Shown here: one piece after another, positions 23,257-39,682 of the stretch
Layout of the letters: every line of letters begins with the position of its first letter
Numbering within the stretch: position 1 is the first letter of the stretch
Source: Escherichia phage V18
DNA: 64,000 nucleotides
Sequence record: NC_041937.1
Strand: one strand, 5' to 3'
The notes under the pieces: generated by a model
Databases searched by the model: none
What the model was told of the DNA's origin: nothing
Seen by the model: the letters and a program-made list of their open reading frames with translations, nothing else
Program-made: the position numbers and the translations under genes

Positions 23257-25329
23257 TTATGAGAAGTCTGGCGGGACAACATCTTCTACATACCCTTTCA
23301 GAGCAACCTGCCCCATATGAAGCACGGTAGAATCTCTAGCGGTAACAGTGATGCTGTCAGACATTACTTGCGGGTATGCCCACACATACTGTTTTACCTC
23401 AGGGTATCTATACTCTATAGTTGCCATGTTTCCGCAAATACATCTCCATAAAAATTCTTGGTAATTCCTAGTTGGGTCGTAGCCATATACCGGAGCAAGC
23501 TCTTTACTAGGAACGAACCCTGCAAGGTATTGTATTTCAGACGGTTGCCAACCTAACTTAACGATAGGTATGTTTACAGACTCTTTTGCCTTTTCAATAC
23601 CTCCCTGCATCACCCAATCGTAGCACTCGGTGCAGAAGAAATCAAGAGCACCTGCTTCCTTTTTATATTGGTCAGCAAGGTTCAGCTTTTGTGTAAGCTC
23701 AGTTTCCATAATGGTTGGGAAAAACAACAAAGCTGTCATCTGAGCTGATGCAGCGTGTGCCTTTATTGCCTTTGAAATAGCCGCAATACGAGCGCCAAGC
23801 TTACCACGACAAAATGCTACATACTTGTCGTAAACACCGCCAGTTTTAGGATCGTCAATAGTCCCAATATCTAATGCATACTCACCTGTCTCATCATAAA
23901 ACGCCTGCTTTGTAGGATAATCATAAATACAAGGTCTACGAGTATCGGTATTGTACCACCACCACGGTTCACCAACCTGCATAATCACTGGCAGGTTGTT
24001 TCTCATAGCGGCTGATGCAAAATTCTTAAATACTGCAGTAAGGAAATTCATACCCTCTTCAATGGTTGGAGACAGGAGGTAGCTACAAGGTGTATACCCT
24101 GTTTTAGCGTAGTTATCGTTCCAGTCTCTTTGGGTCCATTCCAACGGGCAGGCATCGCTGAAAAGCTCAAAACTTACAGATTGCATAACGTCGAAGTTAT
24201 GTCGTTTGGCATTGTACATAAAATCATCATGCCATTTATAAGCTGCAGCGTTTAGCGCTCCTGTTCTGTTTATAGACCATTGAGTTCCTGACCATGTGTA
24301 GTCATAATAATGACTCATACCAACATAATGGTTTATGGTTCCGGTATAGCCCAGACGCTTGATATTGTTCAACACCCTTAAAGGAGATACGTTCCACATG
24401 TCGTCATATGCGGTGCAGATCCCAACGTCGTGCTCTCTCACCTGAATATTGTTAAGTTGCATCATTTTCCAGCCTGTGTCTGGCTGAAGCAGATCTAGGC
24501 GCAACTCACACTCTACATTTTCCGTTCTCGGGTCTGTGCTATTACTTACCCAGTCTTTAGGCATGAGCGGTATTAAAATCCTTCTCACCTGCCGAGGATC
24601 AACACCCATCATGCTGTTATTCTGGTCCATCCCGACGCAGTCCTCAAAATCAATATGAATTTCTGCAACATTCTTATCCTCTGAGATGCTGACAGCATAT
24701 TGAGCTAAAGGAACATAGATGATTGTGCCATCAACAAGGTCTACAGTCATAATCATCTTTTCAGGAGTGGAGAAGTTGCTGGCGTTGGTTATTGACATTC
24801 TGAACCAAAGCTTGGTGTTTCTCATCTCATAGTGATCATCGAACCCAATACCGAAATGGTCATACTTGTCAACTGTTTCCCAAATGCACCCAGCCATACC
24901 TCCATATGTTCTTGACACTAAACGGTTAATACAACAGTTGTTATCTGCAACAATACAGGTACTTTCAGTCTGCTGAGTAGTTGTAACCCAATACCTTGGG
25001 TGGAACATTCTCTCCTCGACAGTATCCCAAGATATCCTGTCAAGATTCTCATCTGAAACTATTGTACATTTCGCCCTTTGTGTCCCAATCATCACCCCTT
25101 GGGATTTTGATGAAAACTCCATAAAGAAGCTTCTTGGCAACCTATTGGGTAATTTGTCAACAATTTCCACCGGGATCTCAATACTGGTTGCCCCAATTGG
25201 GATAGTTACATCGCCCTCAACATGATTATAATCCCTACCAGGAACAGCAGTATCCTGAACTGTTCGGTAATGAAACTGTGCGGCCATTGTAGAGTAATCA
25301 CGGTAAGGTTTAAAAACAGCTGTTGCCAT
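23257..25329 (-). CDS. large tail-associated protein with Calx-beta-like N-terminal domain
   Basis: 690-aa ORF; DYNHVEGDVTIPIGATSIEIPVEIVD resembles Calx-beta motif. Confidence 0.5.
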   Translation of the reverse strand: MATAVFKPYRDYSTMAAQFHYRTVQDTAVPGRDYNHVEGDVTIPIGATSIEIPVEIVDKLPNRLPRSFFMEFSSKSQGVMIGTQRAKCTIVSDENLDRISWDTVEERMFHPRYWVTTTQQTESTCIVADNNCCINRLVSRTYGGMAGCIWETVDKYDHFGIGFDDHYEMRNTKLWFRMSITNASNFSTPEKMIMTVDLVDGTIIYVPLAQYAVSISEDKNVAEIHIDFEDCVGMDQNNSMMGVDPRQVRRILIPLMPKDWVSNSTDPRTENVECELRLDLLQPDTGWKMMQLNNIQVREHDVGICTAYDDMWNVSPLRVLNNIKRLGYTGTINHYVGMSHYYDYTWSGTQWSINRTGALNAAAYKWHDDFMYNAKRHNFDVMQSVSFELFSDACPLEWTQRDWNDNYAKTGYTPCSYLLSPTIEEGMNFLTAVFKNFASAAMRNNLPVIMQVGEPWWWYNTDTRRPCIYDYPTKQAFYDETGEYALDIGTIDDPKTGGVYDKYVAFCRGKLGARIAAISKAIKAHAASAQMTALLFFPTIMETELTQKLNLADQYKKEAGALDFFCTECYDWVMQGGIEKAKESVNIPIVKLGWQPSEIQYLAGFVPSKELAPVYGYDPTRNYQEFLWRCICGNMATIEYRYPEVKQYVWAYPQVMSDSITVTARDSTVLHMGQVALKGYVEDVVPPDFS

Positions 25330-25892
25330 TAACCCTCCTGTCTAGTTGCGTTTACTGTAATACTTTCACAATAAATGGTTGTGGTGTCCCAATCAGGTCT
25401 TACGTCAGGAACATACAGCAAAGTAGCCAGCCCACCAACTCCGAATTGGTTTTCTTCCCACACTGATCCGAAGCCAAGAGCTGTAGAGTCCCCTTCAAAA
25501 CCAAAAGCTTGCCCTTGCGATTCTGTAAGACGCAAATGACAAGGCAATGGTAGCATATCTAAGATCTGATCGATAGACTGCAATATGTCAAAGCAAGTTT
25601 TTCTAATATTTATGTCAAACCGGAAGTTGTCTCCTTTCCACGTATCGAAATTGTCTCTTCCGAACAATTGTCGCAAGGTGGAGATGACATCTTCACGAGT
25701 CCCGCCCCTTGATGCTGCGGCCTGCTGAATAATTAGTGTGGCACGAAAATCAGCATCTGAAAGTCCATTCCTAAGAATACCAAGTTGATTACCAACTTCG
25801 TCAAGGTATCTTCCGCTGGCATTGTTAAGCAATCTTCCTTCAGCCAAACCTACCAGCATCTTATCAACATCCTCCAACCTTTTAAGGTACAC
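25329..25892 (-). CDS. hypothetical baseplate/tail protein
   Basis: 187-aa ORF coupled to neighbours. Confidence 0.4.
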   Translation of the reverse strand: MYLKRLEDVDKMLVGLAEGRLLNNASGRYLDEVGNQLGILRNGLSDADFRATLIIQQAAASRGGTREDVISTLRQLFGRDNFDTWKGDNFRFDINIRKTCFDILQSIDQILDMLPLPCHLRLTESQGQAFGFEGDSTALGFGSVWEENQFGVGGLATLLYVPDVRPDWDTTTIYCESITVNATRQEG

Positions 25893-26025
25893 GGTTAAGA
25901 ATGTGACTAAATTAACCTTCTCAGCCAGAAAATCTCCAGGCAGGTAGTCAAGACCTCCCTGAACAAAATCTGGCAGAGTGTGGATGTGGTTAACATCGAC
26001 TTAATCTCTGCCATATCTCGCCGCC

Positions 26026-27516
26026 TTAAATAGTTTGTTGGAAAGTTATATTACTTTCGTCAAGGTCAAACACCTCGGTCATGTTCGCAACAATATCGTT
26101 TGTAGTGTAAGCTTCATCAGAAGCTCCTACTGGTTTAACTTGAATTACCAGTCTATTAAATCTGCCTATTGACACAGCAGCAGATGCAGCACCGACCAAT
26201 TGGATATTATACAACGTATCTGCAACATCCAGTCCGTTAACAACCTGTAAAAGAGCCTCTATAATAGCATCTTTTTCGGTTGTGGAAAGCGCAGCACCGG
26301 AGTAGGTAATTCTTACATCTAGGCGGTAGGTATTTGCCTTGGAGTAATAAATTCTTTCAGTTTGACCGTCAGATGTAGTGACATCGTAGAAAATATTACC
26401 ATAAGTCCTGTTCGTACAGGCTATAGTTTGGTAAAGTGCTTGGCAAATGTCCTCCGTTGCACCACCAAACACAACCACTTGGAACTTGTAAGGAGGTATA
26501 CCTTTAGCATCAGTTTTATCAGTGTTGTTGGAGAACACTCTCACTTTCTCAACACCTTTCACCTCGCTTACAGCGCTAAGGATTGCAGGACGGGTAGCCT
26601 TAGATGTTAACTGTTTTGTGCTGGAAGCTCTTAAGCGATACTCTGAGTCTTTCTCAACATCTCTGCCCTCATTGAATCTTTCTCGGTTGGTAAGCTTGAT
26701 AAATCCACTGGGTGTAGGAGACATTGTTGTTACGGTTTCTGCCTCTCTTGACAGCTCACCAGCCTCGTTAGCGATAACATCCAGGGTGATAGTTCTTTCC
26801 CCTACAATCGGGGATACTCTGAAATCTACTCTACTATTAAGTCCAACTTGATCAAGATTCGAATTGTACCCTATCCACAACGTTCCTGTCAACATATCGA
26901 TCTGAATCAAATCGTCGTTCAACAGGGTTGTATTATCGACAATAAACTGCTTAATCTCTCCGTAAAAGCTTGGCAGATCAGAAGAGTCCAGAGACTTATC
27001 TGTTAAAACCAGACTTTTTGTTTTGATACTTCCATCTGTCTGGTTGGTAATTTGAAAGTTGTATTTACCAATCCTTAGGTCTGGAGCATTTATTCTGTGA
27101 GCAATAAGATTCCCTGCTACTTGCACATCGTTGCTAAGCACAAAGTTGCCACTGTCCAGCGTATAAGTTTTGGAATCATAAATCATATTGTACGGCACAG
27201 TTGTGTTGATTGTCAACTGACAGGTGCCTGATGATTTAGAACGGCCTCTTCGGTAAATACCCTGTCTTCCAAGAAGCTCATCCAGGTAAATACCTTCTGC
27301 CCCATACAGCGTCTGTGATGCGTATACAGATGCTGCCATAAGAATAAGTTGATACTCTCGCTCGTTGAAGATAGTGGTCAGCTTATCTGCAACGGAGTTA
27401 CTCTGTACGTTGAAGTTTTCGCCAAAAGCACGGATCAGGCTTTGCTTAGTTTCAACGATTAGGTCATTTAGGGTTGGTATAACGAAACCAGCCTCTGTCA
27501 ATCCATACTTAGCCAC
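26026..27516 (-). CDS. baseplate J-like (gp6-like) protein, tentative
   Basis: 496-aa ORF; N-terminal pattern resembling Baseplate_J family; assignment from memory only. Confidence 0.45.
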   Translation of the reverse strand: MAKYGLTEAGFVIPTLNDLIVETKQSLIRAFGENFNVQSNSVADKLTTIFNEREYQLILMAASVYASQTLYGAEGIYLDELLGRQGIYRRGRSKSSGTCQLTINTTVPYNMIYDSKTYTLDSGNFVLSNDVQVAGNLIAHRINAPDLRIGKYNFQITNQTDGSIKTKSLVLTDKSLDSSDLPSFYGEIKQFIVDNTTLLNDDLIQIDMLTGTLWIGYNSNLDQVGLNSRVDFRVSPIVGERTITLDVIANEAGELSREAETVTTMSPTPSGFIKLTNRERFNEGRDVEKDSEYRLRASSTKQLTSKATRPAILSAVSEVKGVEKVRVFSNNTDKTDAKGIPPYKFQVVVFGGATEDICQALYQTIACTNRTYGNIFYDVTTSDGQTERIYYSKANTYRLDVRITYSGAALSTTEKDAIIEALLQVVNGLDVADTLYNIQLVGAASAAVSIGRFNRLVIQVKPVGASDEAYTTNDIVANMTEVFDLDESNITFQQTI

Positions 27517-27586
27517 GTCACTCCTCCGGTATGAAAATCTCTACAAGGTATTTTACCAAATTTTGTAACAATAGTCAATCTGAGCA

Positions 27587-27612
27587 TAAAAATAAACCCC
27601 GCCGAAGCGGGG
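27587..27612 (-). terminator. rho-independent terminator (CCCCGCCGAAGCGGGG motif)
   Basis: Hairpin plus U-run on minus strand downstream of 27622. Confidence 0.5.
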
Positions 27613-27621
27613 CTTTAAAGG

Positions 27622-30365
27622 TTAGTCGTGAGACTCGTTCCAAGGTCCCTGGAAGCTAGAGTTTGAACGACTTACTATCACAGTAGGACAGGATATTGTA
27701 ACACCTGTTACAGCTGAGGTGGACCAGCGTGTGTAAATTTCAACAATAATGTCTATGGTTTGTTCACCCAGCCCTGTTATCCCGACTGCACACATACCAT
27801 CGTTATCGTTACCATACTTCTTGCCGTTAAGCTTAAAGAAGAATGTTACGTTCTTGCCTTGGCCTTGAACGTTATCCACGTATCTCCATCTCCAACGGCA
27901 AACCTGCTGCCGAGAGTTGTATACTGGAGGACAGTCACCGTAGGTCTTGTGTGCAACTATTGCACCTTCGAACTGGTTAGCACGGATAACGGAAGCTTCT
28001 ACACGTCCACGGAATGTACCTCCTGTTGCATCTATGGTTCCTCTAAAGCTACCATTGTTGGCATAAACATCTCCACGGAAGGTACCACTGGTGGCGTTAA
28101 CTGCCCCTGTGAAGTTACCTGCACTAGCGTTGATGTTACCTTTCACCCACACATCCATAAACTGGGCGTGCCCGTTCTTGTTAATATACCAACCGTATTT
28201 ATGGTACCCGTTGCCATCGTAGTTGTTTGACGAAATCTCTTGTGCGATCTTGGCAGAGGAGATCGTGCCATTCTCTATAAAAGCGTCTTTCAAGAACGCT
28301 TGGTTGTTCTTGATTGCGAAAGCAAGGGTTGCTGTTCCATTGCCGGGGTTGTATACCGCAAAATTGTTTGCACTAACCATGAAGTAGGATTGAACTTGGC
28401 CCCCAGACCCTTCCATCCCCAACTGGATACCTGCAACATATTTAAGCAGCGTGCAGCGCATTCTACAAACTGAGAACTACCAAAAGCGTTTGTGGTTCGA
28501 ATATACCAATAATAAACCTTATCGTTCTGCAGACCTTCAGATGTCCAAGTTGAACCAACACCCATACGGGTGGCGTTTGAAGTAACGGTTGCATCGCTGG
28601 TGTCGGGCAACCTTGTCATACCAGATGTCCAAAAGTCATACTGGGTGCTTACACTTGCTAAATCCCTGCTGTGTGGAATCAAGGTGATAGCAAAGTATCC
28701 CTGCTTAACCTCTACAGAAACAGGAGCTTCAGGTGCCTGAATGTTAAACTCGCAGTACGCTTCTGGAGATACACCACCTTTATAAGATGTTGCAACCACG
28801 GTTGCTGTGTATGATCCTTTGGTCAAGCCTTCTACTCGGACAAACTGCTCAACTGTCTGTGCTGTCCAAACAATCTCTCCGTTCTTTCTTACCTGCACAA
28901 TATTTTGAGCGTAAGTTCCAACGTTGTCCCAAGCCAAAACACCGTGAGTTACTTCCCCGGCTTGGAGAACGGAATATCTGAAGTTTTGCGGTTGAGCTAC
29001 ACCAGATGGAGATATCGGAATATCTACATTGCCAGAATCCGGAAGTTGCCCTGTGGCATCATTCCACTCTTTAGCATCTTGACGAAGTTTTACCTTGACA
29101 CCACCCTTTTTGGTAAACTCCCATTCAAGAACCCTCATTTCTTGGCCCACTATACCAATACTTGGAAGGTTCATTGTAACGTAACGACCAGGTTTAAATT
29201 TAAAACCCCGCATATTGCAGGTGACTTCAATAATCCTGCCAGCTCTAGCGCGTCTTAAGAAGATTGCAGAAACACGCTGAGCTTGATAAGGGCTGGTAAC
29301 AAAGCGATAGTCTATATCGATTATCTTTCTTTCTCCATCCTTCTCTATCCACTCTGGGACAAACACTGATGGAAAATCTGTTTCAGAATACCCTTTAGTC
29401 GGACTGGTGAATCTGCCAGTTATTGTGTTGGATCTTTTGTCAAACGAGGCTTCCGGATAGATCTTGACCTCACCACAGACACAGTCCTCACTCAGTGTCA
29501 TTGTTGCTGGACCATAATATGCACCTACCAGCAGTCCATACTTACCAGCTACATAACTGAGATCTGCACCACAAGCTTTCAGCATTTCTGCCATAATACT
29601 TGCTGGAGCCTCATCCATGTCGAACTCACCATTGATGGTGTAACGGCGCTCACTAGTTCCGTCCGCGTTTCTTACCGCCTCATCGCATATGTTGGCAGCC
29701 TCCTTGAAGGACTCCCAGTTGATGGTTTCGTCAGGACATTTAAGGTACGTTCTTAAATAATCTAGAATCACCAAGGCCGCGTTATTGGTATACACCTCTT
29801 TACTGATACGAGGATCATAGCATTTTTTACCAACCTTGACGAGTGTAACGTTTGGCAACCCAAAAGGGAACTTGTTAGGGTCAAACCTGAAGCTGGCACG
29901 TAGCCAACTGATCCCTCTACCTATCATGTCTGGTGACCACGATGGGCAGTGTGTACCCATGAAAGGATCAGATGTTTTTCTGTCGTTATGTAGCTCCCAC
30001 GATACCAAATCTCCATACGAGGAAATAGGATTACCGTCGATAAGTATGTCCTCTATACCTTCCAGAGGGTGATTGGCAAGAACAATAGCACAATGGAGGG
30101 TTCTGTCGCTATCCTGCTCCAAAAACGCAAGCAATCCAGATGTGCGTGTCTTTCCATACACTACAGAGCAAGGTGCAGCAGAAGATCTGAGAAGCTTTTG
30201 TCTATCTTGCTGACTTCTGTAAGATTTGTTGCCCTCAAAAATCTTATCCAAAGTTCTGGTGGTCACAGTGTTCAGGCTGTCAGCCAGAGCTGCCTTGGAT
30301 GCGTTCCAGTCATAACTTGAAGATCTTGCAGAAGCAACGATGTTATCAATCATTGCAATTGGCAT
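27622..30365 (-). CDS. lambda J-like tail tip/host specificity protein, interrupted by a frameshift near 28440..28465
   Basis: 28290..30365 carries APEAPVSVEVKQGYFAITLIPH and YYWYIRTTNAFGSSQFVE, closely matching my recollection of lambda J; 27622..28461 in another frame continues with KYVAGIQLGME... and fibre repeats. Confidence 0.6.
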
Positions 30366-30802
30366 TAATACCTCCAGACATCAACAACGATAGAATCTTT
30401 CATGTCGAACATAAAGACCCCTTTATCACCTTTCGCCCAAATCTGGTTGTTCCAGAACACACCAGCGGTGAGCCCGTTCAGACCTTCGAAAATAACAATA
30501 TCGCCACGCTGAACCTGTTTAGGAGTACCCAGTCGAGTCATAAAGAGATCAAAAATAGTAGGCAGGTGTGTAGTTTTGAAACGAAGCATGCACCATCTTT
30601 TGCTTTCCAACTCTGTTTTATACGTTCCTTCGAAGTTGGAAAGAAAATCTGTTCCGTATTGGGCATCAACACACTTAGCTGCAAAGGTGCAACAATCGTG
30701 GAATCCCCATTCAAAAGGTATGGTGGCCTCTTCGTCAAACACTTTCCACAATCTTTCTTGCCAATCCACTAAACGAGGGTGTGTGCTCATTAAACCTCCC
30801 AA
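30365..30802 (-). CDS. NlpC/P60-like tail-associated peptidase, tentative
   Basis: 145-aa ORF; FHDCCTF motif around candidate catalytic Cys; immediately upstream of J-like gene. Confidence 0.45.
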   Translation of the reverse strand: MGGLMSTHPRLVDWQERLWKVFDEEATIPFEWGFHDCCTFAAKCVDAQYGTDFLSNFEGTYKTELESKRWCMLRFKTTHLPTIFDLFMTRLGTPKQVQRGDIVIFEGLNGLTAGVFWNNQIWAKGDKGVFMFDMKDSIVVDVWRY

Positions 30803-31356
30803 ATGATCGGGCGGCTCGCCACCTGATCCACATATTTAAAAAATCTGTCATTATCGTTTCTTGAGCTGTGGCTTTCCTCCGTGTACCGATAAGGAAAACC
30901 TCTTAACCAGCTGTTGAAGATGGAAGAGATGGATATGGACAAAGCACTATTCTCTCCTGTCTGAATAGCCATATCTGTTATAAGGCCGTCAAACAAGCCA
31001 TTAGTTGTGACAGGCAGACCATTCTCCATAGCGGTAATGTACAACGTGGCACGACAACCAGAATACTCCGTCTTCAGCAGATCACCCACATACTTAGGAT
31101 CAAACCCGTTTAATGTTGCTACCACAGACCCGAAGTTGGTGGCATCTTTCTCAGACACAGCAGTTAATGTTGCTGATCCACCTATCCCTATAAAATGTTG
31201 CCCCTCAATTACCACAACACCAGTGCCTGAGCACACCCTGACAGTTCCTGTCGGTAGCTCCAGCTTTGCAGCAATTAAGATCTCAACACCATCAAGCTCC
31301 AGCTTTTCAAGAAATAAATTATCTAATGGCGCTCTGATCATCTTAGAAATCCTCAA
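30790..31356 (-). CDS. minor tail protein
   Basis: 188-aa ORF in distal tail module. Confidence 0.4.
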   Translation of the reverse strand: MRISKMIRAPLDNLFLEKLELDGVEILIAAKLELPTGTVRVCSGTGVVVIEGQHFIGIGGSATLTAVSEKDATNFGSVVATLNGFDPKYVGDLLKTEYSGCRATLYITAMENGLPVTTNGLFDGLITDMAIQTGENSALSISISSIFNSWLRGFPYRYTEESHSSRNDNDRFFKYVDQVASRPIIWEV

Positions 31357-32031: not shown

Positions 32032-33064
32032 TTACTTCAGTTTCTCTTGCAACCCAGTAACAACCTCTGTCAATTTTTTAACCTGCTCCTCAAGGGCGGT
32101 TATTTTATCATCCTGCTCCCTGCAAACCTGGACAAGCAAGCCTGTTACAGCTGCGTAATCCACGCTGTAGAATCTTTCCTCTGTTATCAAAGGAGTTCCA
32201 TCTTGATCAGGGTTTGGGATTTCCTTTCTTTGCACGAAAGAGCTAACTGCTTCCGGCAGCGCTTCAAGCACCTCTTGTGCTATAACACCTGCATAAGGCA
32301 TACCATTCTCTTTCAAGGTGTAGGTATAACCCTTCATCTTACGGATAGCTTCTAACGCATCAGGAATAACAACTATGTTATCTTTCAGGTCTCTGTCAGA
32401 ACTCTGATTGACAGATGTGCAATTCACAGCACCGTTTACAGAAAGATATCTTGATTTATCCGGCAAGGTACCGCAATGCCATACATAAGCTGATTGAGAC
32501 TCGTCAAGAACCTTAAACTCTAGCACGTTTGGACGAGTCCCTGCACTGCCGTTGCCCCAATAATGCTGCCATCTGGAAAGCGTAGTTTCCAGAAAATGCC
32601 ACAGACAACCCGCCAACAACCATTGAACCTTCAGGTCCGTTGACGTTGCCAGCCAGTATTTTGGATGGGTTGTTAGGCCCAAACTGGTTGTTCCAGTCTG
32701 CACCAGTATGACATACAAAACCACCCGGTGCTGAGAAAGTGCCATCTTTGTTGAAGTTGTAGAATCTATGAGCTGTGCCTACAACATCGCGAACGATAAC
32801 TTGACCAGCTTCCGGAGTAGATCTGAACTCTGCCTGGCCTTGCAGTCTTGCACCATTACCACATTTAGAGGTAAAGGTGTTGTTGATCAGATCCTCTGTT
32901 CCTTCTGATGCAGCTTGGAACCCTGCGTTAGAGAACAGTGCTTTTCTAGTGGTCTGACTACCAGGACAAATGTAGTCAATACCGTCTGCCCAAAGCTCGA
33001 CTTTAGGCATGTTCATTTTGCTCATCACTGCATAGCGTTCAGGAGTCCCCAGGTAGTGCCACAT
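32032..33064 (-). CDS. tail fibre distal segment with C-terminal intramolecular chaperone (peptidase S74-like) domain; internal frameshift
   Basis: ORF 32513..33064 and ORF 32032..32745 overlap in different frames; C-terminal SSDRDLKDNIVVIPDALEAIRKMKGY...VIAQEV matches the S74 autoproteolytic chaperone signature. Confidence 0.5.
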
Positions 33065-33163
33065 AGTTCCACCACCAGTGTAGAAACCTGATGTTCCTTT
33101 GAACTCAACCAGAGGTCTGGTGTTTGTTACATCATCACCTTTGATTGCAAGACTTGGAAAGAA

Positions 33164-34963
33164 TCACCTCTGTCTGTCCAGCCACCAGTTCTGTAGTGAC
33201 ACTGTAGTGTAGCACAGTTCATTGGGTCCCCCTACAGTCCTGGCACTGGTACCACCACAAGCTATCGGTAGTGGTTCCCATTTGGCTTTCCGGTTGTTAT
33301 AAACACCCCATTCCAAACTGCCGTTACCGGATTCGTCCATCCCGCCATCCCAGATGACCATCTTGGCGGCTTTCTTAGATCCCCAGAAACCTCTTTCTGC
33401 TCCTGAACTGCGGATCCATTCTCCAAGTCCCCAGTTTGCCAGCTGACCGTTCAGATCACCAACCTGCATATATTTAGGACAATCTAAGACCCCATCCTCA
33501 CGGAAGCCTAAATATCTATGAGTTTCAGATCCTTTTGCGCCTTTGTGCAGGTGGATTGTCAACCAAGCCTTATTGTCGTTTCTTACCTCAGAGTAGATCC
33601 TATACCCATGCTCAAGGACACCGTCAGCGCTGTATTTGTCCCCGTTAACAATACCTGATGCTGACTTAACATCAGCAGAACTTTGAGACAGGTAAAGGTG
33701 CCCAAAGGTAGGGGAGTTTCTAGACCCGAGACCGATGTGTGCTCTAAAGGTATCATCGTTACGAGGTCTGACCATCGGCTGCCATGCAGTCCACTGATTT
33801 GTGTTGGCCTGGTAGGTTCTCAAATACCAAACATCTACGTTAGAGAATGGATAGTATTCCTGACGACAACCTGTACCGCCGTTAGCATTGTTCTGCCAAA
33901 CAATCAAGTGACCAGCACCAGAACCTGCAGGGTAACCATTTGCCTCAGTTGCATAGGCAGTCATCGGCTGGTAGTACACACCATCCTGATTACCAGTTAA
34001 GTTATTGATATTGAAATTTGGCTCAAGGGCTGCACGTTGCTTATAGAAAGCCCCCAAGTTAATGCGTGAACCTGCGGCATCCCTGGCACCTGTGCCGCCT
34101 TGCTCTATAGCAAGAGGTTGCCACGAAGCTGTTTGTTGGTTCCACATACCCCAACGGCCTGTTGCATCAAGCTGCAAGTACCCTGCTGTGTTTAAATCAT
34201 CTCCAGCACGGATAACTGTTCTTGTTGGGTTGTTTGCCTCTAGGCGTTTAAATTCATCACGAAGTGCTATTCTTTTTGTTGTTGCTACACCGTTGGTTAC
34301 TGCAATGGTATACATGGCTCCGGTGGTAGCGCCACGGAAAATACCATCAACAGTTGTAGTATCACGACGAGATACCACACCATTCAGAAATTTTTCACCA
34401 GCTGCTACAGAAGGGTAGTTGGTAGTTCTTCCCTCTTCAATAACTGCAGGGCCAACAAAGTTATCAAGGTGAATAACATCGCCTACAGTGTGCACTGTAC
34501 CAAAATCTACACGCTGTGCAAGGGCTTTAGCATCGTTAGCTGTCTGAACAGTAACATCCATTACATCCTGGACAGACTGCCCTTCGGCTGTCATAATCAT
34601 AGATGCGCCAATGGTAGATTCCAGCTCCTCCCTTAAGGACGGATCTGTATATACCATCCATGCAGCGTCAGTAATCCCACCATCGGAGTACGGTGAAGAT
34701 AGTGCAGGGACAGTGTGTGGAAATTCGCCTTTCCAACGCAGGTAGAGGTCTTCCTCTTCGAAGTAGGCAAAATCCATTGGGCCGTTTAACTTACCACCTT
34801 CCTTAAAGGAGATTACATGAGAAACAGTCCCATCCACATGGACAACATCGCCAATTTTTACACGACGAGTCAGGTCTGGTTGTTGAACAACCAGGTAATC
34901 ATCCTCTGTCACTGCGGTAGTGGCAGGAAGAGATTCAATTCTGACAACTTTAATATCAGCCAT
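33164..34963 (-). CDS. tail fibre protein (N-terminal anchor plus shaft)
   Basis: 599-aa ORF; N-terminal DDYLVVQQPDLTRRVKIGDVV shared with 37598..38266; ends at a TGA that is in frame with the downstream fibre segment. Confidence 0.55.
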   Translation of the reverse strand: MADIKVVRIESLPATTAVTEDDYLVVQQPDLTRRVKIGDVVHVDGTVSHVISFKEGGKLNGPMDFAYFEEEDLYLRWKGEFPHTVPALSSPYSDGGITDAAWMVYTDPSLREELESTIGASMIMTAEGQSVQDVMDVTVQTANDAKALAQRVDFGTVHTVGDVIHLDNFVGPAVIEEGRTTNYPSVAAGEKFLNGVVSRRDTTTVDGIFRGATTGAMYTIAVTNGVATTKRIALRDEFKRLEANNPTRTVIRAGDDLNTAGYLQLDATGRWGMWNQQTASWQPLAIEQGGTGARDAAGSRINLGAFYKQRAALEPNFNINNLTGNQDGVYYQPMTAYATEANGYPAGSGAGHLIVWQNNANGGTGCRQEYYPFSNVDVWYLRTYQANTNQWTAWQPMVRPRNDDTFRAHIGLGSRNSPTFGHLYLSQSSADVKSASGIVNGDKYSADGVLEHGYRIYSEVRNDNKAWLTIHLHKGAKGSETHRYLGFREDGVLDCPKYMQVGDLNGQLANWGLGEWIRSSGAERGFWGSKKAAKMVIWDGGMDESGNGSLEWGVYNNRKAKWEPLPIACGGTSARTVGGPNELCYTTVSLQNWWLDRQR

Positions 34964-34998
34964 TCTTTCTCCTGAAAGGGGGCAAACAGCCCCCTATG

Positions 34999-37596
34999 TT
35001 AAAGGTACAATCCACGGTATTGAGCATAAAGGCCTAGACCGCGAAGGATTTCGCCAGAGTGATAGCCAACCGGGTCAGAAACTGCCCAGCAGCCGTTTAA
35101 AATATTATCCCCATTAATGAAGTGGTGCTTTTGCAGTAGCTTCACACAGGCTTCCACAACAATATCTATTTGAGGTATTGTCTCTGAATACCCGCAAAGA
35201 CCTAGCCAGCAGCAACCTGCAAGCCATTCACCTACCACCCACATCCTGTCTCCTCTGTCCTGATAAGAATATCCCCCAGAGGTGTTAAAGTCTGTAGGCA
35301 GATTTCCTGAATGAGATGACTGGAATCTGTTGAGGAACCATGCCCATTTCTGGCAGAACAGGAATAGTCTTTCATCAACAGGTTCTTTATGTTTCTTGAG
35401 CTCATATATTGTGCGGCACGCAGCAACAAAAGATCTTGACTGGAGCTTAGAGTTATCTACCATCTCCCACCAACCAGTCAACCCTTCATTACCTCTTTGC
35501 CATACATAACGTGAGGCAACTGGACCCTCTGTCTTAAATGTATTATTATACCAGACTTGAGCGTCATACAGAAAGCCTATTGTATTTGACAATCTATGGC
35601 GATCTATGTTTTCTGCACCCATGCAGTAGACTGCTGGGTATTGCATGCCAGGGTAGGGCCAATTTGGCTTTTCCTCTAAGAGATAGTTTTCCTTATCTAT
35701 CATCTTTCCGGCAGGGAACACACCCGGTGTGTGCCTGTATGCACCTTGCTTGTAGTTTCTGACATAGCAATCTCCAACCTTAGCGGTTGATTCTGTCTTG
35801 CTTGCCATCCATACACTAAACCAGATTAGATAAGCATCCCTATCTGCAATATAGAATTGCGGCAGCGTGTTGACGCAATATAGATCAAACAAGCCATTAC
35901 CTATCTGCCTGTCGCTTAGGCTGAAATCTACAGAGGTGAGCCCCTTAGGATTAGCAAAGAAAGGTTTAATCTCTTCTTCGGTGTGGTGAGGTTGTGTCGG
36001 ATCTAGTTTGAAATCTCCTAGAGTAAGAGTTTCTGTTATCCATTGTCCATTAGTGGCATATAGATCAGCATACCATAACCACCTGTCTTTGTCAAGAAAT
36101 TTGACCCTTACCATCTCATCATCTGATCGATAAGTTACTGAGTTTAAAGAAACCTCTCTTCCAAAATTGAAAGTTACTTTACCTCTTGCTATATTACAAC
36201 GGGTGAAGTTGTCAGAGTGGTTGTAAATGTCGGTATCATACTGCATACTGACACTAGCGCCACCGCTCACGGCAATGTTTTCCTCTTTAGGTAAGAGATA
36301 CGGATTACCGTCTTTACCAACCACCTCTACAAAATCAGTAACCTTGGCAACTGTTTCTGTTACCTCTGCCCCTCCAAAAGGGACACCTATTCTGTACTGT
36401 TTTTTGTTATTGTTACCATCATTAAGGATGAAATGTGGTTGGAACAGAACCCCTTCTCCTCCGAAATTCATAACAATTTCAGCATCTCTGCCTATTTTGT
36501 ATGTAGTCCCTTTTTGGATTATTTCGCAAGGCTGGCGTGCGTTCATTCTAAAATTGATATATCCGTCACTATCCCTACTCATGACAGGTACTGTTCCTGC
36601 AACTAGACAAGTGCCATCTGTGAACGGGGCCTTAATCAACGTGGTCTTTCTGAACAGCTTGTCGTAGGCATTTATATCACTAAAATTAAGCAACTTATTG
36701 TAAGACTGCTTAAACGCGGTGTAATACTTTTCCTCACCTGTCAAGGTATAGAGTTGATAGCAAGCGTCACACCACATCTCTTCCCCGTCTAACTCTGTGG
36801 CTTGATTGTCTGCAACCACATTTATAGGATTTACAATTACAGGGGATCCAGCAGGTATCACCGATCCACCCTGCTCTTGTGGCAATCTCACACAGTAGGT
36901 CACCTTGTGGCTGCCTGTAACACCCTTATCCTGCAGTTGGATTGTGCCGAACTCTGCAGACGTATGACCACTATCGGCTATGCTACCGTTGGCCCAATAG
37001 CGGTTACCATCCCATGCTATATACCACTCAACCCACCAACTTAACCCGGATGTTGTCCAATCTGGGTTAGCATCTGTGCCACCGTAAACATCAGAGTCTA
37101 CAGTGTTTCTTCCTAATACACCGTTATATGCTTGAAATGCCTTGTCCAGGTATTCCCCCCATGTCGGAGATCCAGCTGGGATTTTTCCTCTACCATTGGT
37201 AAAAGATACCACCACATCTTTAAACCCACCATGTGATGGAACCCCATCTGTGGATAGAGGGTAGTGGGACAATCTTTGCATTTTACTTTCTACTGCATAT
37301 GCACCCAAAAGATGACTATTGTAAGCTTCCCAAGCATCTTTTGCCCTATCCAAGTAGAAATCGCTTTTCGATGCCCTGTATGCTTCAATGTACCCCAGAA
37401 TCAACACAGCTTGGGACTCATGCATTGCCCAATCATTATTTATCTTATTACCTGCCCACCCTGCAGCTATAAGACCATCAGGGTTTACTAGCTTATTTTG
37501 TGTGGGAGTGTTGGTAATACCTGTGTTGTTATCGAGGCACTTCCTGTGCCCCTCAATCATCTGAAATACGTTATCAATGTTGTGTTGAATACGCAT
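34999..37596 (-). CDS. large tail-associated protein, possible polysaccharide-degrading domain
   Basis: 865-aa ORF; enzymatic assignment is a guess from composition. Confidence 0.45.
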   Translation of the reverse strand: MRIQHNIDNVFQMIEGHRKCLDNNTGITNTPTQNKLVNPDGLIAAGWAGNKINNDWAMHESQAVLILGYIEAYRASKSDFYLDRAKDAWEAYNSHLLGAYAVESKMQRLSHYPLSTDGVPSHGGFKDVVVSFTNGRGKIPAGSPTWGEYLDKAFQAYNGVLGRNTVDSDVYGGTDANPDWTTSGLSWWVEWYIAWDGNRYWANGSIADSGHTSAEFGTIQLQDKGVTGSHKVTYCVRLPQEQGGSVIPAGSPVIVNPINVVADNQATELDGEEMWCDACYQLYTLTGEEKYYTAFKQSYNKLLNFSDINAYDKLFRKTTLIKAPFTDGTCLVAGTVPVMSRDSDGYINFRMNARQPCEIIQKGTTYKIGRDAEIVMNFGGEGVLFQPHFILNDGNNNKKQYRIGVPFGGAEVTETVAKVTDFVEVVGKDGNPYLLPKEENIAVSGGASVSMQYDTDIYNHSDNFTRCNIARGKVTFNFGREVSLNSVTYRSDDEMVRVKFLDKDRWLWYADLYATNGQWITETLTLGDFKLDPTQPHHTEEEIKPFFANPKGLTSVDFSLSDRQIGNGLFDLYCVNTLPQFYIADRDAYLIWFSVWMASKTESTAKVGDCYVRNYKQGAYRHTPGVFPAGKMIDKENYLLEEKPNWPYPGMQYPAVYCMGAENIDRHRLSNTIGFLYDAQVWYNNTFKTEGPVASRYVWQRGNEGLTGWWEMVDNSKLQSRSFVAACRTIYELKKHKEPVDERLFLFCQKWAWFLNRFQSSHSGNLPTDFNTSGGYSYQDRGDRMWVVGEWLAGCCWLGLCGYSETIPQIDIVVEACVKLLQKHHFINGDNILNGCWAVSDPVGYHSGEILRGLGLYAQYRGLYL

Positions 37597-37597
37597 C

Positions 37598-38266
37598 TTA
37601 GATAGCTCCTGCGATAATCAGTGCCCCGTACCAAGTTAACCCGTTGTCGTAGGTTTCCAACTTGAAAATATCTGTTGCACCAGCTGTAAATGTTAGGATA
37701 GGATCTCTTCCGTAGGACCATTTAACATTATCAGGCCAATAGACTTTGTTGCCGCCAGAGGTCTGAGTAATGCATACGGTTATAGTTCTCGCCACCCCTT
37801 CAAGACCTTCTGCTTGATTTTCAAAAGAGATTGTGGTATTTGAAGTTAGTCGAACCTTAAAGGTATCCGCAACTTCAAGATCCATATCAAGCTGACCACC
37901 GATAGATCCGTAATCAACTATTCTGCCAGAAGAAGTTGCAGCAAGCTCACCAAAAACAGACCAGGCATTTGCAGACACACCCCCAGCACCCTCTACAGTG
38001 GAGTCTGGGAGGATTATTTTAGGATAATCCCCGTTCCACGTGTAGTAGCGCTTAGTCTCTGGGTCATAAGCAAAGTCCTTCTTGCTCTTAAGATAACCAC
38101 CCTCTGTGAAATAGACTATCTTAGTGATACTAAGATCGTTGACAACATCGTCAATCTTAGCCTTTCTTGTCCCATCAGTCTGGTTGACAACCAAGAAGTC
38201 ATCACTCAGGACTGTTTCTGCATCTTCAAGATCTGGAATTGGTATTGTAGGATAAGCTACAGCCAT
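37598..38266 (-). CDS. tail protein with fibre-type N-terminal anchor domain
   Basis: 222-aa ORF; N-terminus similar to 599-aa fibre; stop is 1 nt from next start. Confidence 0.45.
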   Translation of the reverse strand: MAVAYPTIPIPDLEDAETVLSDDFLVVNQTDGTRKAKIDDVVNDLSITKIVYFTEGGYLKSKKDFAYDPETKRYYTWNGDYPKIILPDSTVEGAGGVSANAWSVFGELAATSSGRIVDYGSIGGQLDMDLEVADTFKVRLTSNTTISFENQAEGLEGVARTITVCITQTSGGNKVYWPDNVKWSYGRDPILTFTAGATDIFKLETYDNGLTWYGALIIAGAI

Positions 38267-38275
38267 GATTTCTCC

Positions 38276-38992
38276 TTAGTTAACATCAATAGCACGACCA
38301 GACTGGTTGGCAATAGCCTCATCGTTGGAGGTAGCAATAACACCAGAGTATTCGCGCTCATCTGGAGCAAGCGTCCAGGTATTGCGGTTAATGGTTTGTT
38401 CTGCCTCAGTCATCAGCAGATCTTTATCCTGAGTCAACAGAGAGCCTACAGGGATCGGGTTTTCCATCTCAGGACCAGCATACTGGTTCCACCATGTGGC
38501 ATCTCCGGTTCTAGGCAATCTGAAGTTGATCAGATAGTACAGTTTATTAGCCCACTTAATCCAACCCTCATCATCACAAAGAGAGGTTGTCCCAGAATCA
38601 GGTTGTGGGTAGGTGAACTGATCAAGACCTACGAAAGCCAGTCTTACAATCTCGTTCTCTTTGGTAACAACCTCAAAGAACGCTTGGTATGTTCTCGATC
38701 TTCGATCCATGGTGGACTGGAAGTTTATGATGTTTAGCACATCCGGCTCTTGTCTTGCCACTTCCATGATCTTGTTATCAAGAACAGTCTTCATGACCTT
38801 CTTACTGAGAAAGTCCATATAAGGGAAGCCAAACAGCTCGTCGAAGTACCAGCTCCCCTTCCACGTATTAAACCTCATCCACAAGCGCTGGCGCAGACTT
38901 ACCTGGTTTGAATCTATCAACTCAAGACCTTTGTCTATCGCCAAATCGCCTGTCTGTGGGTCCATCAATATATCACTATAAAGCGTAGCCAT
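38276..38992 (-). CDS. baseplate wedge protein, T4 gp25/GPW-like
   Basis: 238-aa ORF; LYSDI...TWKGSWYFDELFG matches the gp25 signature LYSDI...TRKGSRPFDPEFG. Confidence 0.65.
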   Translation of the reverse strand: MATLYSDILMDPQTGDLAIDKGLELIDSNQVSLRQRLWMRFNTWKGSWYFDELFGFPYMDFLSKKVMKTVLDNKIMEVARQEPDVLNIINFQSTMDRRSRTYQAFFEVVTKENEIVRLAFVGLDQFTYPQPDSGTTSLCDDEGWIKWANKLYYLINFRLPRTGDATWWNQYAGPEMENPIPVGSLLTQDKDLLMTEAEQTINRNTWTLAPDEREYSGVIATSNDEAIANQSGRAIDVN

Positions 38993-39004
38993 GAAAGCCC
39001 TCTA

Positions 39005-39682
39005 TTAGTGTGGTCCACTTGTCTCGCCATCAGGGCAAGAGTGGGTATGACCTTTATATTCTGCATAGAATGAATCCAAATCCACACCAGCAGCAGTTAT
39101 AATTCTACCAGATGGGTCTATTGTGGCACCATTCATTCTGATATTTCCATCCACAGCAGCTCGCAAATTGGCAGCCCCATTAGTGAAAGAAAACTCCCCA
39201 CTGCTGTCGCACCGTAATGTCCCACCAGGTGTTTGAAGCTCAAAATCGCCAGAAGGTGTCAGTTTAAAATAAACCCTATCATTCCATAACTCTACGTTAT
39301 CAGGATCGATCTGTAAAGAGTTTGAGTCTGAATGAACAGAGGTGATTGCCCACCCTGGAAACAGGCCGTGAGTTTGTTGATCGTCGTTATTGTTTTCATT
39401 TCTCTCTGAAAACTGCAATCCTACAACATCTCCGGCCTTAATAGGAAGTGTTAACCTTGCCTTTCCGCTGTTTGCAGACATCACCTGAATTGGAACGTCA
39501 TAGATAAGAGGGTATCTCTCCACATCTCCGTCATCAAACGTGGTTTCAGCTATTGGCTGCACGGCTGCAGAAGGAATACTGTAGTCAACACTGACAACTC
39601 TGGCCCTGATGCTGGTGTGGTAGTCCCTCATTATTTTTTCTATAAAGGATCTTACAGCAGCGTCTTTCCTATTTATTGCCAT
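39005..39682 (-). CDS. baseplate central spike-like protein (gpV/gp45-like), tentative
   Basis: 225-aa ORF; OB-like N-terminal region and His-rich C-terminal tip GHTHSCPDGETSGPH. Confidence 0.4.
   Translation of the reverse strand: MAINRKDAAVRSFIEKIMRDYHTSIRARVVSVDYSIPSAAVQPIAETTFDDGDVERYPLIYDVPIQVMSANSGKARLTLPIKAGDVVGLQFSERNENNNDDQQTHGLFPGWAITSVHSDSNSLQIDPDNVELWNDRVYFKLTPSGDFELQTPGGTLRCDSSGEFSFTNGAANLRAAVDGNIRMNGATIDPSGRIITAAGVDLDSFYAEYKGHTHSCPDGETSGPH

Follow-up and report, generated by a model that had tools for sequence, protein, structure and literature searches.

The window, that is, the whole 64,000-nt stretch analysed here, carries a tail-baseplate-fibre locus of the kind standard for rV5-like myophages (genus Vequintavirus), and embedded among its baseplate genes is a complete siphophage tail tip consisting of a Dit ring protein, a hub piece resembling gpL of lambda and the N-terminal part of pb3 of T5, a DUF6950 protein with an NlpC/P60 fold, and a J-type protein that combines hub and fibre. 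The explanation that we favour, and hold to be probable as a whole, is that this four-gene cassette was captured ancestrally and acts as an anchor complex, and that the copy in the window has been broken by a likely sequence error. The locus itself is already known: the contractile-tailed rV5-like group has long been annotated with a four-gene tip set borrowed from non-contractile phages, and in RefSeq gp37 of rV5 bears the label 'central tail fiber J' and its gp40 the label 'distal tail protein'.

The rV5-like tail and baseplate locus

The window shares 96–97% DNA identity with more than 100 published Vequintavirus genomes; 126 phage records match at this level, 112 of which cover at least 80% of the query, and the gene maps of Bas59 and rV5 are collinear with it. 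The core genes follow the order usual for the clade, namely, tape measure, tube initiator, plug, hub, spike, sheath initiator, wedge proteins, short fibres and Tfa (all features located below lie on the minus strand). The tape measure gene (42060–44395; rV5 gp49 homologue) is represented by 2 ORFs (43556–44395 and 42060–43559). It is followed by genes for the tube initiator (41072–41983; rV5 gp48 homologue; Pfam Dit_like, 3.7e-22), annotated as 'tail tube initiator' in Bas59, the baseplate plug (40679–41059; rV5 gp47 homologue; Pfam Pam3_gp18, 2.9e-18) and the baseplate hub (39683–40679; homologue of rV5 gp46, which has 334 aa in rV5; PHROG 196 'baseplate hub', 2.6e-64).

The central spike (39005–39682; rV5 gp45; Pfam PF18352, 1.4e-9) is of the phi92 gp138 type, matching the PDB structures from phiTE (E = 2e-62) and of phi92 gp138 (3pqi, E = 1.2e-18). 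The sheath initiator, of the T4 gp25 type (38276–38992; rV5 gp44; PHROG 120), contains the motifs MATLYSDI... and WKGSWYFDELFGFPY and matches the solved sheath initiators of phiTE (9mjn, E = 5e-61), phi92 (gp139, E = 5.5e-15) and Pam3 (gp21). The initial annotation, made from the sequence without database searches, had named these 2 products a spike-like protein and a gp25-like wedge protein; both calls, along with those of a J-like and an NlpC/P60-like protein discussed below, survive profile, solved-structure and fold searches. Alignment reveals a 60-aa C-terminal tail on the sheath initiator, which is missing from relatives without the inserted fibre genes. Beyond the inserted block lie genes for the baseplate wedge of the Baseplate_J/T4 gp6 type (26026–27516; rV5 gp36; Pfam Baseplate_J), which matches phiTE wedge 2 (E = 2.5e-158) as well as phi92 gp145 in the PDB and has counterparts of at least 95% identity in 115 records, and for a second baseplate protein (25329–26013; rV5 gp35; PHROG 4056 'baseplate protein', 1.5e-81).

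A Tfa-like chaperone had also been placed between positions 25329 and 39682, where none is found. The sole Caudo_TAP match in the window with Pfam and PHROG profiles is a Tfa-type tail fibre assembly chaperone outside this block (21606–22190; rV5 gp32; Caudo_TAP, 9.8e-12; PHROG 136), flanked by paralogous short-fibre genes (22205–23149 and 20147–21190) and already annotated in rV5 (NC_011041) as 'tail fiber assembly protein'. The BASEL paper relates the Tfa/short-fibre locus to GpS/GpU of Mu. Since Tfa goes with Mu-type short fibres and is normal in a contractile-tailed phage, it provides no evidence of siphovirus ancestry. The block itself contains nothing chaperone-like apart from the C-terminal Peptidase_S74 domain of the gp41-like fibre, an intramolecular chaperone.

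A variable slot for fibre genes

The interval between the sheath initiator and wedge genes is a variable fibre-gene slot. It spans 10,759 nt (~10.8 kb) in the window, in line with the initial estimate of about 11 kb of fibre genes between baseplate genes, and 12.5–12.7 kb in intact Vequintavirus relatives. The same slot measures 89–91 nt in W70 and PcCB7V, whereas in Schickermooser and KB57 it is occupied by different fibre genes (5.7–7.5 kb); at the level of the 4 related genera sampled, Septuagintavirus and Certrevirus have nothing in the slot, and Mydovirus and Phapecoctavirus have other fibre genes there. No cassette homologues were found at the slot loci of these 4 phages.

In Vequintavirus, the slot contains 3 fibre genes (gp43 to gp41) and the terminator-bracketed four-gene cassette. 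The first gene of the inserted block encodes a small fibre or adaptor protein (37598–38266; rV5 gp43; Pfam Tail_spike_N, 2e-10; PHROG 7760), the second a large tail or fibre protein (34999–37596; rV5 gp42; PHROG 2871 'tail protein', E = 0), the homologue of which is labelled 'lateral tail fiber protein with glycosidase domains' in Bas59, and the third an L-shaped-fibre-like protein (32032–34963; rV5 gp41) with a Tail_spike_N start and the Peptidase_S74 end. According to the BASEL paper, the 2 large fibre genes at these positions vary strongly between alleles.

The four-gene tail-tip cassette

A terminator-like GC-rich hairpin with a TTCG loop and a T-run (32005–32024) separates gp41 from the cassette. 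The first cassette gene encodes the distal tail protein, Dit (31369–31932; rV5 gp40; PHROG 1302 'distal tail protein', 1.3e-43), and the second the hub attachment piece (30790–31341; rV5 gp39), the counterpart of gpL in lambda and of the N-terminal part of pb3 in T5. The gp39 family profile matches pb3 residues 17–179 (E = 5e-9), and Foldseek matches include T5 pb3, lambda gpL (8iyk_L), the GTA structure 6tba and the T1 and Chi tips. The product of the third gene (30365–30790; rV5 gp38; Pfam DUF6950) was rightly described as NlpC/P60-like: the best Foldseek matches of its AF2 model (pLDDT 93) are NlpC/P60 endopeptidases (E = 2e-5, TM 0.59–0.67), with the Asp-Cys pair conserved but no conserved His.

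The fourth gene (27622–30365; rV5 gp37; ORFs 28290–30365 and 27622–28461) encodes the J-like hub plus fibre protein, with Pfam domains Ig_J_second (1.2e-29) and Phage_Tail_Tip (8.5e-31), a match to PHROG 'central tail fiber J' (2.5e-131) and PDB matches to lambda gpJ and T5 pb3. The earlier identification of a lambda J-like tip protein thus holds as regards the J type, whereas the label 'lambda-type' is imprecise, since the lambda J model (lambda_TipJ) is matched only locally (84.5 bits versus a cut-off of 1950) and Queuovirinae/PY54-type proteins are closer; nor is J encoded by one intact gene in the window. Directly 3' of the J stop codon is a second terminator-like hairpin with a TTCG loop (27594–27615), and downstream of this hairpin, upstream of the wedge gene, there is a promoter-like site (27578–27550).

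Distribution and origin of the cassette

The cassette is collinear with the TMP-Dit-tail protein-DUF6950-J region of Seuratvirus SHIN8, with amino acid identities of 33%, 40%, 44% and 54% in gene order from Dit to J, and Vibrio phage K381 has the same layout. Among 80 IMG/VR loci encoding DUF6950, a gp39-like gene is present in 79 and a J-like gene in all 80, and a TMP-like ORF lies just upstream in 60 of the 63 with sufficient upstream sequence; no tblastn match to the sheath, tube, plug, spike, sheath-initiator or wedge proteins of the window was obtained in these 80 loci. In siphophages, the cassette normally comes directly after the tape measure gene. Identity of the J protein is at least 95% in 115 records and below 60% in 449, with none in between (60–95%), and in a spread sample of the records below 60% (30–83 kb) each genome listed looks siphophage-like or of the prophage type. 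Judged by sequence, the nearest relatives of the cassette outside the genus are Queuovirinae-type siphophages, and the closest donors would be of the Queuovirinae/PY54 type rather than lambda.

The combination of a myovirus baseplate with this cassette, initially considered unusual, is carried by all 115 Vequintavirus records found and is hence not unusual for this group. In a divergent lineage (81–92% amino acid identity), represented by several unrelated contigs, all 4 cassette ORFs are intact, with dN of 0.08–0.37 and saturated dS. Across the genus, the cassette is kept intact, its amino acid divergence being well below the saturated synonymous divergence. Collinearity with SHIN8 and a slot that is empty or otherwise filled in 4 related genera support modular acquisition of the cassette, which is old and genus-wide, so that the modular exchange proposed at the outset is upheld by synteny. 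The direction of transfer, from siphophage to myophage, we infer from this distribution and not from a rooted tree.

Proposed role in the virion

The cassette would have been captured by recombination in the ancestor of the genus and would be expressed late, together with the other tail genes. Trimers of J, with gp39 and probably a Dit ring, could then assemble on the baseplate into a tip-like anchor complex that would bind a host surface receptor through its variable C-terminal part. Such a complex would be one extra recognition device on a multi-fibre baseplate, with sheath contraction and membrane puncture presumably staying with the myovirus hub and spike, and DUF6950 would probably have an assembly role, like lambda gpK, rather than that of a canonical peptidase. 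A Dit ring normally stacks on the end of the tail tube, and we know of no docking site for it on a myovirus baseplate, which counts against this explanation.

Lambda gpK is required in assembly but absent from virions, which counts for a different reading that we regard as possible, if rather doubtful, namely that the virion uses the J-like protein alone, as a lateral fibre attached via its N-terminal domains, with Dit, gp39 and DUF6950 being discarded assembly helpers or dispensable. Consistently, mass spectrometry of rV5 virions detected gp37, with only 5 spectra, but not gp38, gp39 or gp40, which makes a Dit/gp39/J complex in the particle hypothetical, and the BASEL label for gp37 homologues is 'lateral tail fiber protein with fibronectin type III domain'. 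Against this, gp39 and gp40 are intact, with dN of 0.08–0.12 where synonymous sites are saturated; the gp39 fold is that of a hub piece which is a structural virion component in the lambda, T5, T1, Chi and GTA tips; and small low-copy proteins are easily missed at a depth at which gp37 itself yielded so few spectra.

Alternatively, the Dit ring and a J cone could share the axis of the central spike in a single tip complex, a central fibre that would have to open before or during contraction. Retention of the full set of tube-end capping proteins would suit such an arrangement, as would symmetry (six-fold Dit on a six-fold baseplate, three-fold J on a three-fold spike), and RBPseg notes that the Vequintavirinae fibre has at its N-terminus the type of beta-sandwich region that central tail fibres typically show. 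However, cryo-EM of 2 Vequintavirus baseplates (Bas49 and Bas54) resolved only 3 fibre types, to which the J-like protein was not fitted, a result that counts against the anchor complex as well, and no central fibre appears in them or in the literature examined. The spike tip is free in the solved phiTE and phi92 baseplates, although both phages lack the cassette, and a second tape measure or tube gene is absent. We thus consider an axial tip unlikely and retain the anchor complex as the preferred reading.

Sequence damage in this copy

Compared with rV5-like genomes, about 1.1 kb of gp37 and 0.9 kb of gp41 are missing from the window, which also shows many single-base deletions. An out-of-frame deletion of 1039 nt splits the J gene in 2 ORFs and corresponds to approximately amino acids 641–987 in intact relatives, a stretch located between Ig_J_second and Phage_Tail_Tip; gp41 is in 3 ORFs owing to out-of-frame deletions of 473, 229 and 179 nt; and a 1-nt deletion at 31440 puts the C-terminal part of Dit (gp40) out of frame. 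With these 3 genes out of frame, the cassette as written cannot work in the window. The J deletion occurs in none of the 115 related records matching its junction query and the gp41 deletions in none of the 119 matching theirs, as would be expected if J cassette and adjoining fibre genes were decaying pseudogenes, disused in this phage. This is improbable, given that similar damage affects the tape measure gene, split by a 1-nt deletion near 43558, the hub ORF, which ends early at 39867 because of deletions of 5, 1 and 1 nt at 39910–39971, and the major capsid gene, from which 181 nt are missing. In gp35, too, a 1-nt deletion at 25997 leaves an ORF with a late start (25892). Single-base indels number more than 25 across the 64 kb, most of them deletions adjoining an identical base, and the genes broken by single-base deletions include gp49, gp46, gp40, gp35 and gp33. 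Damage in indispensable genes and the indel pattern point to a sequence that is error-prone or mis-assembled, or else to a dead genome, rather than to selective fibre loss, and sequencing or assembly error is the most likely source of the frameshifts and deletions. Despite these signs of poor assembly, joining of a siphophage contig to a myophage contig is refuted by the identical gene order in 112 independently sequenced genomes, by rV5, which has the same order and whose sequence was completed with clone libraries and primer walking, and by the cassette order in the divergent lineage on several unrelated contigs.

Comparison with known systems

The genes and their order are identical in rV5 (gp35–gp49; NC_011041), Bas59 EduardKellenberger and BP9, at 96–97% DNA identity to the window. 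Queuovirinae siphophages, exemplified by SHIN8, have the 4 cassette genes in the same order and of similar sizes and include the closest J relatives outside the genus. However, their cassette caps a non-contractile tube and is encoded right after the tape measure, whereas that of the window lies ~10 kb from the tape measure gene in a contractile baseplate operon, has terminator-like hairpins on both sides and encodes a longer J stretch between Ig_J_second and Phage_Tail_Tip.

With respect to the lambda M-L-K-I-J genes, gp39 shares the gpL fold but is shorter, with only 2 Cys, and J shares the Ig/FN3 and Phage_Tail_Tip regions of gpJ at 29–31% identity; no match to gpI was found among the 4 cassette genes. 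Lambda gpK has a JAB/MPN half, of which gp38 (141 aa) has no counterpart, since it aligns only to gpK residues 59–145; the 2 proteins share the C40/NlpC-P60 fold and the Asp-Cys and QxGD motifs, but the gpK His aligns to Thr. In T5, where pb9 is Dit and pb3 the baseplate hub protein, the parts are fused: the gp39 family corresponds to pb3 residues 17–179 and J residues 244–472 to pb3 527–752, so that gp39 and J amount to pb3 split into 2 genes; no equivalents of pb4 and pb5 were identified. The tip genes g12–g15 of the Rhodobacter GTA, encoding Dit, hub, peptidase and megatron, follow the same four-part logic, and the equivalence of the hubs draws support from a fold match between gp39 and a GTA virion chain (6tba), although this system is very distant in sequence and has a non-contractile tail.

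On the contractile side, the Certrevirus PcCB7V has its wedge gene directly after the sheath initiator. The cryo-EM baseplates of phiTE (Certrevirus) and phi92 contain no chains related to gp38–40 or J but have a homologous sheath initiator, wedge and spike, and their fibre networks attach to the wedge and the sheath initiator.

A tail locus shared by rV5-like phages

Megablast searches with the region 25329-41983 of the Escherichia phage V18 sequence (NC_041937.1) matched 126 phage records, 112 of which span at least 80% of the region at 96-97% DNA identity. The matching records are nearly all Escherichia phages of the genus Vequintavirus, such as rV5, BP9 and the BASEL phages EduardKellenberger (Bas59), RudolfGeigy and MaxBurger. 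All tail genes of the window lie on the minus strand, and gene-by-gene maps pair them one-to-one with rV5 gp30-gp53 and Bas59 genes 14-37, identifying the region by both identity and collinearity as the Vequintavirus tail, baseplate and fiber locus. Its gene arrangement is the published and annotated architecture of rV5-like phages and is, as such, already known. The rV5 supplementary table gives PY54 homologues for gp38 and gp40, the rV5 sequence record carries PY54 similarity remarks for gp37-40, and in RefSeq gp37 appears as "central tail fiber J", with gp40 listed as "distal tail protein". No paper that we found on rV5 and on J-type tip or host specificity proteins discusses these genes as a unit. 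What is added here is a complete, genus-specific cassette of Dit, gpL-like, K-like and J proteins, located in a variable slot and bounded by terminator-like hairpins; on sequence comparison, its nearest relatives are of the Queuovirinae type, not lambda. The possibility that the mixture of siphophage and myophage genes is a chimeric assembly is ruled out by the gene order common to rV5-like genomes and a divergent lineage (L010). Under the name "Campylobacter phage", GenBank contains 18 unannotated records (MG0656xx, host C. jejuni) that share approximately 96% identity with rV5-like phages of E. coli in this locus, and their host label looks doubtful.

The injection core is of the myophage type

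The initial annotation had taken a T4 gp25-like protein and a spike-like protein as indications of a contractile tail, and both assignments held. The product of 38276-38992 contains the motifs on which the first was based and is homologous to solved sheath initiators of the T4 gp25 class, namely those of phiTE (PDB 9mjn, E = 5e-61), phi92 (gp139, 5.5e-15), Bas63 (gp022, 1.8e-7) and Pam3 (gp21, 0.003). We relied on these PDB homologues because Pfam gave no gp25 or sheath-initiator match at E <= 0.01; PF10934 is present in the L010 orthologue. The product of 39005-39682, directly upstream, is the central spike (PF18352; phiTE, E = 2e-62; phi92 gp138 crystal structure 3pqi, 1e-18). A Baseplate_J-type wedge protein is encoded at 26026-27516 (phiTE wedge 2, E = 2.5e-158; phi92 gp145), and profile searches identified the hub (39867-40679), plug (40679-41059) and tube initiator (41072-41983), all on the minus strand. 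With the tube initiator, plug, hub, spike, sheath initiator and wedge thus accounted for, the contractile-tail baseplate is real.

A siphophage tip cassette in the baseplate locus

Four consecutive minus-strand genes encode a gp40-like Dit (31369-31932), a gp39-like protein (30790-31341), a gp38-like DUF6950 protein (30365-30790) and, as the last gene of the inserted block, a J-like protein (27622-30365), which together are all the proteins that normally cap the end of a non-contractile tube. In the Seuratvirus siphophage SHIN8 (Queuovirinae), a collinear cassette with genes of matching size directly follows the tape measure gene, with amino acid identities of 33% (Dit, in the same position), 40%, 44% and 54% (J, from residue 48 on), and Vibrio phage K381 shares this layout. 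A scan of IMG/VR with the DUF6950 alignment as query recovered 80 loci, with a gp39-like gene in 79 and a J-like gene in all 80; a tape-measure-sized open reading frame (ORF) lies just upstream in 60 of the 63 loci with sufficient upstream sequence. None of the 80 loci matched the sheath, tube, plug, spike, sheath-initiator or wedge proteins of the window by tblastn, which sees only relatives of these proteins. Since the scan returned no rV5-like contigs, it shows only the usual, siphophage context of the cassette.

The distribution of individual proteins is equally informative. Across the phage collection, the N-terminal part of J occurs at >=95% identity in 115 records, all rV5-like, in none at 60-95%, and at <60% in 449; in a spread sample of the last group, all were genomes of 30-83 kb of Queuovirinae, Vibrio, lambdoid/Stx or similar type. 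For the wedge protein there are likewise 115 records at >=95%, but its matches extend into other myophage genera, at 60%, 50% and 32% identity. This is most simply read as one acquisition event, in which an ancestor of Vequintavirus took up a tip cassette from a siphophage; the direction of transfer is inferred from this distribution. On the minus strand the cassette is flanked by two strong terminator-like hairpins (32024-32005 and 27615-27594), which share a TTCG tetraloop and have similar GC-rich stems, and ahead of the wedge gene there is a promoter-like site. A third hairpin, of another form, lies 3' of the tape measure gene (42035-42048).

The presumed lambda-type J protein proved to be J-like in its domains, with nearest relatives of the Queuovirinae type and a score far below threshold for the lambda family. 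ORFs 28290-30365 and 27622-28461 (minus strand) carry Ig_J_second (1.2e-29) and Phage_Tail_Tip (8.5e-31) and match the PHROG "central tail fiber J" (2.5e-131). Residues 497-640 match lambda gpJ structures, residues 244-472 match residues 527-752 of T5 pb3, indicating N-terminal domains of siphophage baseplate-hub type, and two regions align with lambda gpJ by BLASTP at 29-31% identity. Ig_J scored 25 bits, under the Pfam cut-off of 29, and the NCBIfam lambda_TipJ model, with a cut-off of 1950 bits, gave scores of 84.5 and 39.4, so that the similarity to lambda J is local and not full-length.

The remaining cassette products are more divergent: single-sequence PDB searches with gp40, gp39 and gp38 found nothing, the gp39 match required a 91-sequence profile, and gp38 and gp39 required structure prediction. 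The gp40-like protein, at the head of the cassette, is a putative Dit by its match to PHROG 1302, "distal tail protein" (1.3e-43). A profile of the gp39 family aligned with pb3, the T5 baseplate hub protein, over residues 17-179 (E = 5e-9), and the AlphaFold2 (AF2) model of gp39 (pLDDT 85) retrieved with Foldseek T5 pb3 (4e-7), lambda gpL (8iyk_L, 3e-5) and tip proteins of GTA, T1, Chi and JBD30. The predicted structure thus has the tube-like hub fold common to lambda gpL and the pb3 N-terminus. As gp39 corresponds to the N-terminal part of pb3 and J residues 244-472 to a later part, gp39 and J together represent a split pb3. Lambda gpL has a domain with a four-cysteine Fe-S cluster; gp39 (183 aa) lacks a domain of this type, with 2 cysteines and no cysteine column kept in the 91-sequence alignment.

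The description of the DUF6950 protein as NlpC/P60-like is borne out at the level of the predicted fold. The AF2 model built from 100 homologues (pLDDT 93) is most similar in the PDB to the NlpC/P60 endopeptidases MepS, LytE and RipD (E = 2e-5, TM 0.59-0.67); the top 12 Foldseek matches are MepS or entries titled only "bacterial peptidase" (7v6s/t/u; E <= 3e-4), followed by LytE and RipD. Pfam reported DUF6950 alone for this protein, with no NLPC_P60 match. Asp36-Cys37 is invariant across the 100 homologues, among which there is no conserved histidine column, and the catalytic histidine of lambda gpK lines up with a threonine in an hhalign comparison of the DUF6950 alignment with the single gpK sequence, a weak match (probability 6%) used for motif correspondence only. 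With the Asp-Cys pair retained but no conserved histidine and this substitution, gp38 is probably not a canonical C40 peptidase.

The cassette occupies a variable fiber slot

The estimate that about 11 kb of fiber genes are inserted between baseplate genes was accurate: measured between the stop of the sheath-initiator gene and the start of the wedge gene, the slot spans 10,759 nt in V18, 12,737 nt in Bas59 and 12,492 nt in L010. It measures 7,525 nt in the Mydovirus KB57 and 5,673 nt in the Phapecoctavirus Schickermooser, filled with different fiber or depolymerase genes in the former and different fiber genes in the latter, and shrinks to 91 nt in the Septuagintavirus W70 and 89 nt in the Certrevirus PcCB7V, in which the sheath initiator and wedge genes are neighbors. 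No homologues of gp37-40 were found in these four loci. The genus-dependent length and content define a variable fiber-gene slot in a clade with an otherwise common baseplate. The length of the sheath initiator, of which residues ~172-238 form a C-terminal tail, tracks the content of the slot downstream: 174-177 aa with an empty slot (W70 and PcCB7V), 204-208 aa where it holds 5.7-7.5 kb of fiber genes (Schickermooser and KB57) and 238 aa with the 12.5-kb slot of Vequintavirus. This tail may be a docking arm for additional fibers.

Further fiber modules lie within and beside the block. The Tail_spike_N domain (TSP1/Gp66), which serves in branched tailspike assemblies of the CBA120 type, occurs in the gp43-like protein (37598-38266) and at the N-terminus of the gp41-like fiber (33164-34963), both on the minus strand, and by analogy hints at a branched fiber network beside the J cassette. 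The Tfa chaperone that had been placed inside the block is not there: Caudo_TAP is absent from all 15 minus-strand ORFs scanned in 25329-39682, and its sole match (21606-22190, minus strand, E = 9.8e-12) is flanked by two paralogous short-fiber genes. The BASEL paper relates this short-fiber/Tfa locus to Mu GpS/GpU. Its authors also described very strong allelic variation in two large fiber genes, which by alignment position appear to be gp37 and gp41, and left unclear which genes make which fiber. The gp34-like protein (23257-25329, minus strand) matches the N-terminal and TIM-barrel domains of the Pfam "non-contractile tail sheath protein" (4e-80) and has a Calx-beta domain. It looks like the deacetylase-domain fiber which the BASEL paper reports as homologous to the lateral tail fiber of phage N4 and linked to ECA/NGR glycan binding; if so, the baseplate also bears a podophage-derived receptor-binding module.

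The V18 record is a damaged copy

Compared with Bas59 and BP9, the reading frames of the tape measure, hub, gp41, gp40, J, gp35 and gp33 are broken in the window by indels and deletions without parallel in relatives. J lacks 1039 nt out of frame, corresponding to approximately residues 641-987 between Ig_J_second and Phage_Tail_Tip, and another 57 nt in frame; gp41 lacks 473, 229 and 179 nt, all out of frame. The junctions of these deletions, at 28444/28445 in J and at 32564, 33127-33153 and 33228/33229 in gp41, are clean, with no microhomology or repeats that would point to recombination or repeat collapse, and the J and gp41 deletions were found in 0 of 115 and 0 of 119 related records, respectively, that matched the two junction queries. 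Single-base deletions disrupt the tape measure (43558), hub (39910-39971), gp40 (31440), gp35 (25997) and gp33 (23168).

Similar lesions are found outside the tail genes. Relative to BP9, the region 50763-51395 is missing 181 nt within the major capsid gene, along with 349 nt immediately upstream of that gene, and in the gene next to the capsid gene a stretch of approximately 640 nt has 74 nt in its place. Small indels number more than 25 across the 64 kb, mostly single-base deletions in the window beside an identical base, at sites including 43558, 47501, 49907, 54997, 56224 and 56693. At 56620-56942 (minus strand) there are three tRNA genes (Met, Thr and Arg) versus five in BP9 (Arg, Tyr, Thr, Met and Pro), with an alignment break at 56817-56864 and a 1-nt deletion at 56693, and the tRNA cluster is hence also damaged.

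The window sequence as written cannot code for a viable phage and has the appearance of an error-prone or mis-assembled copy. Selective decay of the fiber genes in V18, which the large lesions in J and gp41 could suggest, is less likely than error-prone sequencing, mis-assembly or a dead genome, because indispensable genes are damaged as badly as the fibers. The practical lesson is that the sequence is unreliable, even in the capsid gene, and ORF-based readings therefore need checking against intact relatives.

Maintenance and possible role of the cassette

The cassette is conserved and its largest product is present in particles. All four cassette ORFs are intact in a divergent Vequintavirus-like lineage (L010/L011), with tail proteins only 81-92% identical, which is represented by a contig of an E. 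coli assembly and by Logan contigs. The sources are Logan DRR842911_970 and the 73.7-kb contig JZQG01000004.1 of GCA_002973135.1, labeled Escherichia coli; the architecture matches that of Vequintavirus, and the lineage is not among the >=95% identity records of the phage collection. Its DUF6950 protein and J (61% and 73% identical, respectively) diverge much faster than their neighbors. Between this lineage and Bas59, dN is 0.12 for gp40, 0.08 for gp39, 0.16 for gp37 and 0.37 for gp38; we quote dN only, since saturation of synonymous sites between the two available lineages, in the cassette as well as the core baseplate genes, precludes dN/dS for most genes. In the published proteome of rV5 virions, gp37 (4 peptides) and gp41 are present and gp38-40 were not detected; the "proteomics" paper on an O177 phage is in silico only. 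Cryo-EM of the Bas49 and Bas54 baseplates resolved three fiber types but left the J-like protein unplaced; according to the authors, its N-terminal region resembles that of central fibers.

It is quite probable that J is a virion-borne receptor-binding fiber. The chance that J, Dit and gp39 assemble into a tip-like complex is somewhat short of even. In such a complex, a J trimer, gp39 and probably a Dit ring would form a tip-like anchor on the baseplate, the variable distal part of J would bind the host receptor, and the DUF6950 protein would probably act in assembly. The J complex could then be one more recognition device beside the N4 gp65-type fiber (23257-25329), the gp41-43 fibers and the Mu-type short fibers. 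More tentative still, with the odds leaning against it, is a genuine siphophage-type tip, with Dit ring, gpL-like protein and J trimer, mounted on the contractile baseplate either coaxially under the spike or laterally.

As a finding, the arrangement adds little, being the published hallmark of a well-sampled genus. Phages of the rV5-like group are frequent in collections for therapy and biocontrol and infect a broad range of hosts, and knowledge of the individual fiber roles would be of use in host-range engineering. In siphophages, J directly follows the tape measure, Dit and hub genes, whereas here, in a phage with a contractile tail, Dit, gp39 and gp38 lie upstream but approximately 10 kb separates the cassette from the tape measure gene. 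The solved baseplates of phiTE and phi92 are without the cassette; a siphophage-type tip on the rV5-like baseplate, if true, would be a hybrid virion architecture without solved precedent and would account for part of these phages' wide host range.
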